From NCBI RefSeq assembly GCF_003334335.1, contig NZ_QOWQ01000038.1: a stretch of DNA of 40,690 nucleotides, one strand, 5' to 3'. Positions 20,115-22,162 of the stretch are shown piece by piece. The notes below the pieces were generated by a model. It had not been told where the DNA came from, made no database searches, and saw only the letters and a program-made list of their open reading frames with translations. A program made the translations under genes and the position numbers. Within the stretch, counting starts at the first letter, position 1, and every line of letters starts with the position of its first letter. This DNA comes from Escherichia coli. Lineage in GTDB: Bacteria > Pseudomonadota > Gammaproteobacteria > Enterobacterales > Enterobacteriaceae.

Positions 20115-20963
20115 TTATGTGATCGCGCCCAGGTCATCCCTGACAGTAAATCCCAGTTCATTAGAAATAGCCTGCGCGGTTTCACGCAGTGGTTTCAGGA
20201 GATTTTTCTCTCCCACCTGTTTCAGACGTGATGTCGAAAGCGAAATCGACACGGCGTACGGCACCCGCCCATGAATATCAAACACCGGAACAGCAATACA
20301 GGAGACGCCGAGTTCGTTTTCTTCTCTGTCCATCGCCGCTCCGCTTTCACGAATGTGCGCCAGTTCGTCGAACATCGCGGGCAGCTCGGTAATGGTATTG
20401 CGGGTTAACGGCTGGATCTCATGCTGATGGCTTTCCCAGTATGACTTCACGTAGTCCGGGTGACCAAACGCCATGTAGATCTTGCCCATTGCGGAACAGT
20501 AGAGCGGCATATGCTGGCCAATATAGGCACGGGTTCGCAGCATCCCGGTTGTGGGTTCCAGCTTATAAATCAAAATAGCGTGATCGTCTTCGCGGCTGGA
20601 GAAGTTAATGGTTTCACCAGTGGCGATGTTCAGTGCCTCAAGATGCGGAGCGGCGATATGAATGATATTCAGCGAAGACAGCGCCTTCTGCCCGACGGCA
20701 ATAAATTTGGTGGTCAGGCGATAACTCCCTGCGGCAGGCGCGGTGGTCACATAGCCGCAGGACTGTAATCCCTGCAATAAGCGATGGACGGTACTCTTAT
20801 TTAAACCAGCCAGCTCCGAAAGATGCGCCAACGGACAACCGTTTGGATAGTTGCTCAAAATCTCAATCAGCATCAACCCGCGAAACAGACTCTGGCTTCC
20901 GGCTGGACGCTCTTTTTCCTGCGCCATCTCGTTCTCTTTTTTTCCCATCACTTCTTTCCCCAT
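20115..20963 (-). CDS. yiaJ: IclR-family transcriptional repressor of the yiaK-sgbE operon
   Basis: 282 aa with N-terminal HTH and C-terminal IclR effector domain. Divergent from yiaK. Confidence 0.9.
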   Translation of the reverse strand: MGKEVMGKKENEMAQEKERPAGSQSLFRGLMLIEILSNYPNGCPLAHLSELAGLNKSTVHRLLQGLQSCGYVTTAPAAGSYRLTTKFIAVGQKALSSLNIIHIAAPHLEALNIATGETINFSSREDDHAILIYKLEPTTGMLRTRAYIGQHMPLYCSAMGKIYMAFGHPDYVKSYWESHQHEIQPLTRNTITELPAMFDELAHIRESGAAMDREENELGVSCIAVPVFDIHGRVPYAVSISLSTSRLKQVGEKNLLKPLRETAQAISNELGFTVRDDLGAIT

Positions 20964-21163
20964 TTTGTCGCGTCCTGATGGTAGCGCAAAGTGTGCCGTA
21001 GTTCACGATCTCGACAGATAATTTATAACCAATTGATTTTTATGTCTTTTGAAATTCATCAATCAGATTGCTTTGTTAAAAAGTGATCGATATATTTGAA
21101 ATCAAGTTTCGCATATTGAAATTTTAAGCCAAAAAAGCGATCAAAAAAACAAGGAAGCCTGGG
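20964..21163. promoter_or_regulatory. yiaJ / yiaK divergent control region
   Basis: CRP-like site GTGTGccgtagTTCACG around 20990-21007. Three direct TTGAAAT repeats at 21049, 21096 and 21116. Confidence 0.5.
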
Positions 21164-22162
21164 ATGAAAGTGACATTTGAGCAGTTAAAAGCAGCCTTTA
21201 ATCGGGTCTTAATTTCACGCGGCGTTGACAGCGAAACGGCTGACGCCTGTGCAGAGATGTTCGCCCGCACCACCGAATCCGGCGTTTATTCTCACGGCGT
21301 TAATCGTTTCCCTCGTTTCATTCAACAACTGGAAAACGGCGATATCATTCCTGATGCCCAACCCAAACGTATAACCAGCCTCGGCGCAATTGAACAGTGG
21401 GACGCCCAGCGTTCGATCGGTAACCTGACAGCGAAAAAGATGATGGATCGCGCCATTGAACTGGCTGCCGATCACGGTATTGGTCTGGTGGCACTACGTA
21501 ATGCCAACCACTGGATGCGCGGCGGCAGCTACGGCTGGCAGGCGGCGGAAAAAGGCTATATTGGCATTTGCTGGACCAACTCCATCGCCGTAATGCCGCC
21601 GTGGGGCGCAAAAGAGTGTCGCATCGGCACTAACCCGCTGATCGTCGCCATTCCTTCCACGCCGATCACCATGGTCGATATGTCGATGTCGATGTTCTCT
21701 TACGGCATGTTAGAAGTTAACCGTCTGGCAGGTCGTCAGCTCCCGGTCGATGGTGGCTTTGATGATGAGGGCAATTTGACCAAAGAACCTGGCGTTATCG
21801 AGAAGAATCGCCGCATTTTGCCGATGGGCTACTGGAAAGGTTCTGGCATGTCGATTGTGCTGGATATGATCGCTACTCTCCTTTCCGACGGCGCATCCGT
21901 TGCCGAAGTCACCCAGGACAACAGCGACGAATACGGCATTTCACAAATTTTTATTGCCATTGAAGTGGACAAGCTTATCGACGGTCCCACCCGCGATGCC
22001 AAGCTGCAACGCATCATGGATTACGTTACTAGTGCCGAGCGTGCTGACGAAAATCAGGCCATTCGCTTACCCGGCCATGAATTTACTACCCTGCTGGCCG
22101 AAAACCGCCGTAACGGCATCACTGTTGATGACAGCGTGTGGGCCAAAATCCAGGCGTTATGA
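21164..22162 (+). CDS. yiaK: 2,3-diketo-L-gulonate reductase (Ldh2/Mdh2 family NAD(P)H oxidoreductase)
   Basis: 332 aa, recognised as YiaK. Confidence 0.93.

Follow-up and report, generated by a model that had tools for sequence, protein, structure and literature searches.

The 200-bp spacer between the divergent genes yiaJ and yiaK of Escherichia coli carries the heptamer TTGAAAT three times, which raises the question of whether the three copies form a single regulatory unit or whether they belong to different control elements of the region. The window, that is the whole stretch of 40,690 nucleotides that was analysed, is of E. coli origin, and a 351-bp query around the feature matched 4992 of 5426 complete E. 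coli genomes at 95–100% identity. The genes flanking all of these matches are annotated as yiaJ (IclR-family regulator) and yiaK (3-dehydro-L-gulonate 2-dehydrogenase), in keeping with the assignment of the locus by an earlier reading of the letters and open reading frames (the sequence-only reading). Since the yiaJ open reading frame occupies 20115-20963 on the minus strand and yiaK starts at 21164, the interval 20964-21163 (34.5% G+C) is exactly the divergent spacer. The three plus-strand heptamers reported in the sequence-only reading, at 21049, 21096 and 21116 with spacings of 47 and 20 bp, were all recovered, as was its GTGTG-N6-TTCACG motif, placed at about 20990-21007 and found at 20991-21007. 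The features of the spacer and its flanks, with promoter positions counted from the predicted yiaK start, are the following:

20115-20963, minus strand: yiaJ (plaR), open reading frame, named as in RefSeq records of E. coli
20989-21010: CRP site ('Crp site 1') aAgTGTGccgtagtTCACgaTc, core TGTGC-N6-TCACG at 20992-21007, centre 20999.5, about -104.5 from the yiaK start
21026-21038, minus strand: putative IHF site, exact match to the IHF core consensus AATCAATTGGTTA (WATCAANNNNTTR), about -78 to -66 from the yiaK start
21049-21055, plus strand: TTGAAAT copy 1, -55 to -49, within the A/T-rich tract 5' of the IHF core
21068-21096, plus strand: predicted yiaK core promoter, -35 TTGCTT at 21068-21073, 17-bp spacer, -10 TATATT at 21091-21096
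21096-21102, plus strand: TTGAAAT copy 2, box 1 of the predicted YiaJ/PlaR operator, -8 to -2, overlapping the last base of the -10
21106-21112, minus strand: box 2 of the predicted operator, an inverted copy reading GTTTCGC on the plus strand, +3 to +9
21116-21122, plus strand: TTGAAAT copy 3, box 3 of the predicted operator, +13 to +19, direct relative to box 1
21164 onwards, plus strand: yiaK, open reading frame beginning with ATG, named as in RefSeq records of E. coli

Triple repetition of the heptamer is by itself weak evidence. With 12 matches in the 40-kb window and 9.35 expected, TTGAAAT shows no enrichment. When the 200-bp spacer was shuffled 5000 times with dinucleotides preserved, 152 shuffles (about 3%) contained some non-trivial heptamer three or more times on one strand, and about nine other 200-bp stretches of the window also hold a triple heptamer. 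Scans for CRP, IHF and IclR-type consensus sequences, proposed as a check in the sequence-only reading, did return matches of all three kinds at the locus, but none of them was enriched over shuffles in the window: 20 CRP cores with at most two mismatches were found where 15.5 were expected, three IHF cores where 1.75 were expected and two PlaR-type dyads where 2.07 were expected. Motif matching alone therefore proves nothing here and, as the sequence statistics were undecisive, conservation was used as evidence.

A scan for YiaK with one genome per species returned 80 loci, from Escherichia, Klebsiella, Citrobacter, Enterobacter, Kosakonia, Hafnia, Rahnella and Serratia out to Pasteurellaceae, and in 66 of these a divergent yiaJ homologue lies adjacent upstream, as it does in the window. 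Fifty orthologous spacers of 200-260 bp were aligned, many from closely related genomes, so that counts from this set overstate independent support, and column majority frequencies were calculated from its 41 non-Escherichia Enterobacterales rows, with a mean of 0.81 over the spacer. TGAAAT occupies the position of copy 2 in 45/50 aligned spacers and that of copy 3 in 48/50, while the position between them reads ATTTCG in 40/50 and GTTTCG in 2/50 (GTTTCGC in E. coli, ATTTCGC elsewhere). Column frequencies for these three boxes were 0.98, 0.97 and 0.97, and the letters between the boxes vary while the boxes stay constant. The conserved unit is TGAAAT rather than TTGAAAT, because copy 3 reads GTGAAAT in most genera. 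Conservation thus lifts copies 2 and 3, together with the CRP site, above chance, with the exception of copy 1, whose mean column frequency (0.82) is at the level of the spacer background.

Copies 2 and 3 and the box between them make up a 27-bp element, TTGAAAT-caa-GTTTCGC-ata-TTGAAAT (21096-21122; -8 to +19 of the yiaK promoter), in which the directions of the boxes alternate and boxes 2 and 3 form the everted dyad GTTTCGC-ata-TTGAAAT. As the box centres (21099, 21109 and 21119) are exactly 10 bp apart, all three boxes fall on one helix face. Searched for with at most one mismatch, the composite TGAAAT-N3-RTTTCR-N5-TGAAAT precedes yiaK in 65 of the 81 sequences examined (the window and the 80 loci), from Escherichia to Pasteurellaceae, and DNA downstream in these loci, used as a control, gave no match at 457,428 positions. 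The dyad TGAAATCAAGTTTCG has its sole match in the 40-kb window here, and no fourth box flanking the element on either side was found in the window sequence or the spacer alignment. The sequence-only reading had taken three direct repeats for the unit of interest and had missed the inverted box between copies 2 and 3. A direct-repeat operator would have all of its copies conserved and helically phased; at this locus copy 1 is unconserved and only copies 2 and 3, at 20 bp, are in phase. The suggestion of the sequence-only reading that the repeats could be operator or architectural-protein sites agrees with the position of copies 2 and 3 in a predicted operator and of copy 1 in the flank of the putative IHF site. 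From motif and conservation, copies 2 and 3 are predicted to be boxes 1 and 3 of a YiaJ/PlaR operator, although the conservation of box 1 could stem in part from the overlapping -10 and start region. The element lies inside a fragment from -50 to +121 that YiaJ reportedly shifts.

The box arrangement agrees with what has been described for the IclR family. Suvorova and Gelfand 2021 (PMC8222616) distinguished IclR motifs of the types GKTYCRY-W3-4-RYGRAMC (group 1) and TGRAACA-N1-2-TGTTYCA (group 2), and listed 32 orthologous groups with three-box alternating sites, for which PcaU is the experimental precedent. Compared by eye, boxes 1 and 2 of the window (TGAAAT-caa-GTTTCG) share 10/12 core letters with TGRAAC...GTTYCA and fit group 2, and boxes 2 and 3 (GTTTCGC-ATA-TTGAAAT) share 7/7 and 5/7 letters with GKTYCRY-W3-RYGRAMC and fit group 1. 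The yiaK gene, as b3575, stands in the site tables of both groups, and the supplement of the same study gives four sites for it:

Site -127, TtTTatgTcTtTTGAAATT, score 4.02 (weak), holding copy 1
Site -73, ataTTTGAAATCAagTTTCgCAtaT, score 5.90, holding copy 2
Site -60, AgTTTCgcATATTGAAATT, score 5.86, made of box 2 and copy 3
Site -53, cATaTTGAAATttTAagcCAaAAaa, score 4.40, holding copy 3

Each of these published strings occurs letter for letter in the window, and all three heptamers had thus been catalogued before. In the prototypes PcaU, PobR and HmgR an extra external half-site is present, and in PcaU the third box is experimentally required; the boxes there are of the GTNCG type, whereas those at yiaK are of the A/T-rich KdgR/IclR type and are known here from their sequence. 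The third box would let YiaJ switch between dimerisation modes on boxes 1 and 2 or on boxes 2 and 3, as Suvorova and Gelfand speculated for the family.

Experimental work on the regulator points to the same place. YiaJ was renamed PlaR by Shimada 2019 (PMC6958661), where the yiaJ/yiaK spacer had the strongest affinity of PlaR in EMSA, the genes were derepressed in a plaR mutant, PlaR was released by L-ascorbate and galacturonate, and the PlaR box ATnTGAAACnnnGTTCAnTT overlapped the experimentally identified yiaK promoter. The stretch 21094-21114 of the window, ATTTGAAATCAAGTTTCGCAT, fits this box, with 14/17 specified letters if the consensus is read with GTTTCA. The published box covers boxes 1 and 2, whereas the equally conserved box 3 lies outside it. 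In the ChIP-exo data of Gao 2018, two YiaJ peaks were found in the spacer and YiaJ sat on the yiaK promoter at the position of RNA polymerase. The published binding data for YiaJ come from EMSA, gSELEX and ChIP-exo and resolve fragments or peaks.

The boxes resemble those of a paralogous IclR-family protein, KdgR (TGAAAC-N3-GTTTCA type), which might share them with YiaJ, be their main ligand or be integrated with YiaJ at this promoter. The resemblance of the PlaR box to the KdgR box led Shimada 2019 to propose co-regulation, and plaR mRNA was raised in a kdgR mutant in the same study. The affinity of YiaJ is nevertheless strongest for this very spacer, yiaK is strongly derepressed in the plaR mutant alone, the three-box element co-occurs with an adjacent yiaJ in most loci and data on KdgR binding to the yiaJ/yiaK spacer were not found. 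A role for KdgR is accordingly judged unlikely, and this judgement concerns cross-binding in addition to a YiaJ operator, not a replacement of it.

It would also be conceivable that all three heptamers are equivalent YiaJ direct-repeat half-sites, copy 1 serving as an auxiliary operator for looping or for yiaJ autoregulation. The three heptamers are identical, one of the two ChIP-exo peaks was read as autoregulation by Gao 2018, the weak -127 site of Suvorova and Gelfand 2021 contains copy 1, and a second E. coli allele (L002), although diverged, retains the heptamer. Comparison across genera gives a different picture, as TGAAAT stands at the position of copy 1 in 2/50 aligned spacers, both from E. 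coli, and is absent from E. whittamii, E. albertii and the other genera; the remaining spacers read AAAAAA (14), TGAAAA (13), TAAAAA (6) or further variants. Copy 1 differs from the common TGAAAA by a single substitution, lacks an inverted partner box and lies 47 bp, or about 4.5 helical turns, from box 1, which puts it on the opposite helix face. Equivalence of the three copies is hence decidedly doubtful, and copy 1 is probably not a YiaJ box. It appears best explained as an accidental, E. coli-specific heptamer in the A/T-rich arm of the putative IHF site. There is also a slim chance that copy 1 is a recent, E. coli-specific fourth YiaJ half-site, with an IHF bend letting a YiaJ tetramer bridge to the main operator. 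If true, this would explain the second ChIP-exo peak, which could lie near copy 1, as well as yiaJ autoregulation.

Upstream of copy 1, the CRP site has a core with an 8/10 match to TGTGA-N6-TCACA and the symmetry expected of CRP sites. Its right half has a majority frequency of 0.97 in the 41 non-Escherichia rows and reads ATCACA in Pasteurellaceae. In 43 loci the core begins 105 bp before box 1, and in 15 more the distance is 103-108 bp, a fixed position in orthologous promoters as is usual for CRP sites. Crp site 1 is said to be centred at -106 and to be essential for yiaK-S expression. The CRP-like site noticed in the sequence-only reading is a catalogued one, since the same 22-mer, aAgTGTGccgtagtTCACgaTc, was given by Price 2008 as the CRP site of E. 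coli K-12 yiaKLMNOPQRS (-175 from the start codon, 9.1 bits), with a counterpart in Haemophilus (H. influenzae xenolog). According to Shimada 2011, RegulonDB counts yiaJ and yiaK as CRP targets, and the spacer has multiple CRP sites; genomic SELEX in that study failed to recover CRP at yiaJ/yiaK, which appear in its 'not identified by SELEX-chip' list. Two candidates for a second CRP site were considered and set aside. TTTGA-N6-TCAAT (21048-21063), which lies over copy 1, has three mismatches and is weak and unconserved. The core TGGGATGAAAGTGACA (21160-21175) has two mismatches and covers the yiaK start codon, at about +64; it could be the published 'Crp site 2', albeit as a weak candidate whose left half is unconserved in other genera.

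The perfect IHF core on the minus strand at 21026-21038 was absent from the sequence-only reading. Its A/T-rich 5' arm extends over about 21039-21060 (about 77% A+T), as would be expected of an IHF site, the TTGAT columns of the core have a frequency of 0.93, and the core starts 71 bp upstream of box 1 in 41 loci. If up to one mismatch is allowed, 52 loci have the core at 70-74 bp from box 1. IHF reportedly modulates yiaK-S expression, and this core is the likely position at which it would do so.

A strict sigma-70 scan returned no yiaK promoter because the -35 is poor, and a relaxed hexamer scan predicted a start at about 21103-21104, from a -10 hexamer with a frequency of 0.96 across genera. 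The 5' end of yiaK is reportedly 60 bp upstream of the ATG, and the predicted start and CRP centre fit both this 5' end and the -106 site. From box 1 to the yiaK ATG the distance ranges from 40 to 221 bp across genera, yet the distances from the CRP and IHF sites to box 1 are fixed, and the spacing of CRP site, IHF core, promoter and operator is therefore rigid across genera. The arrangement resembles promoters of the class with a distal CRP site and an IHF bend, having CRP at about -104.5, IHF centred at about -72, a weak -35 and rigid spacing; the link through a bend is one that we infer here. The yiaK-S promoter of E. coli K-12 (Ibanez et al. 2000, cited by Shimada 2019) is the same locus with the same sequence and offers no substantive difference.

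The position of the boxes invites a further reading, in which the conservation of 21091-21122 reflects the core promoter, the initial transcribed sequence or the mRNA leader rather than a repressor site, as box 1 abuts the -10 and the start, and boxes 2 and 3 fall within the 5' untranslated region. Yet the conserved dyads TGAAAT/ATTTCG and ATTTCGC/GTGAAAT match both published IclR consensus types, the sequence varies between the boxes and not within them, and a co-varying variant, TGGAAT/ATTCCA/TGAAAC, occurs where yiaJ is absent. No RNA family was matched when 20700-21400 was scanned against Rfam, and the idea of a structured leader or small RNA was therefore dropped. Promoter or leader constraint is consequently very unlikely to account for the boxes. 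That the repeats are chance matches in A/T-rich intergenic DNA with no binding function, as the triple heptamers in shuffles and elsewhere in the window and the lack of TTGAAAT enrichment might suggest, is tenable for copy 1 only and otherwise extremely improbable, given copies 2 and 3 and an inverted box that are near-invariant from Escherichia to Pasteurellaceae, fixed box spacing, no composite match in control DNA and published experimental binding of YiaJ at the yiaK promoter (Gao 2018; Shimada 2019).

Taken together, the spacer is very probably an upstream CRP and IHF module followed by a three-box YiaJ/PlaR operator at the yiaK promoter, with copy 1 as a chance occurrence. On this explanation both the yiaK-S (yiaKLMNO-lyxK-sgbHUE) operon and yiaJ would be controlled from one compact module with rigid spacing. 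For activation, cAMP-CRP would bind the site centred at about -104.5 and IHF at about -72 would bend the DNA, such that the distal CRP could help RNA polymerase at the weak TTGCTT-N17-TATATT promoter. For repression, the IclR-family protein YiaJ/PlaR would occupy the three boxes on one helix face at 21096-21122 and, from -8 to +19, would block either polymerase binding (at the -10 and start site) or promoter escape, until an effector, of which L-ascorbate and galacturonate are the reported ones, frees it. This scheme builds on the observed sequences, conservation and fixed spacing and on published CRP and YiaJ binding, IHF dependence and repression, and presumes the IHF position, the bending geometry, the mechanism of repression and the number of bound protein subunits.

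All of these elements have been published before: Price 2008 gave the CRP site, Shimada 2019 the PlaR box, and Suvorova and Gelfand 2021 the three-box IclR operators, including the b3575 sites. Being a catabolic promoter of textbook style, served by a local repressor together with CRP and IHF, the locus has little significance beyond a tidy annotation. The base-level map separates the predicted functional boxes from an accidental repeat, and gives the YiaJ operator three boxes as opposed to the two of the published PlaR consensus. It also offers clear mutation targets for the idea of two dimerisation modes in IclR-family proteins, in the tractable host E. coli.

Additional observations concern the yiaJ side of the spacer. 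The yiaJ promoter is said to overlap the yiaK-S promoter region, and yiaJ expression is said to be autoregulated and reduced by CRP at site 1. Two minus-strand yiaJ promoters were considered and remained weak candidates, AAGACA-N17-TAAATT with a start at about 21013 (relaxed scan) and GTGAAC-N17-TACCAT with a start at about 20971 (by eye). The sequence CTGATGGTAGCGCAAAG (20975-20991), on the yiaJ side of the CRP core, is nearly invariant in the Enterobacteriaceae rows (frequency 0.9-1.0), which exceeds what a CRP flank needs. This stretch may represent the yiaJ core promoter (GTGAAC-N17-TACCAT), which would place the CRP site over the -35, or else a portion of the yiaJ leader. In the annotation, yiaJ begins with the ATG at 20963 (MGKEVMGKK...), which is unconserved, being absent from the E. 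coli allele L002, E. whittamii, E. albertii and most genera, while a methionine aligned with yiaJ residue 6 (ATG at 20948-20946, minus strand) is kept in nearly all loci; the YiaJ protein may on that account have 277 aa and the spacer 215 bp.

The three-box element was also seen at loci with no yiaJ homologue within 2 kb upstream. In Brenneria and Serratia (L071, L074, L075, L078 and L080), the canonical element lies about 70 bp, and a better CRP core (TGTGT-N6-TCACA) about 178 bp, upstream of yiaK, and the regulator must be encoded elsewhere since no yiaJ homologue lies in those 2 kb. Another six yiaJ-less loci (L037, L042, L043, L047, L050 and L064) hold a variant element, TGGAATcacATTCCActatgTGAAAC, about 48-50 bp upstream of the yiaK homologue, in which the boxes have co-varied to TGGAAT-N3-ATTCCA-N5-TGAAAC. 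The variant suggests a paralogous IclR-type regulator with shifted specificity, and the co-variation would fit a protein-recognised element with changed specificity. At the one locus of this set that was inspected (L043, by eye), the yiaK homologue follows co-directional sugar-binding-like and SMP-30/gluconolactonase-like genes.

In an uncultured Klebsiella genome assembled from a metagenome (L006), the spacer is only about 146 bp long. The CRP and IHF-like sites remain (-108 and -74 relative to the ATG), while the three-box operator and promoter segment are missing, owing either to a deletion in this allele or to an artefact of assembly. Finally, a direct repeat, AAAAG(T/C)GATC, flanks the operator at 21079-21089 and 21133-21143, 54 bp apart. 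Both of its copies carry a GATC (Dam) site, and the CRP site has a third GATC (21007-21010) in its right flank. Of these, the first two are conserved across Enterobacteriaceae, although Enterobacter has lost the downstream one.
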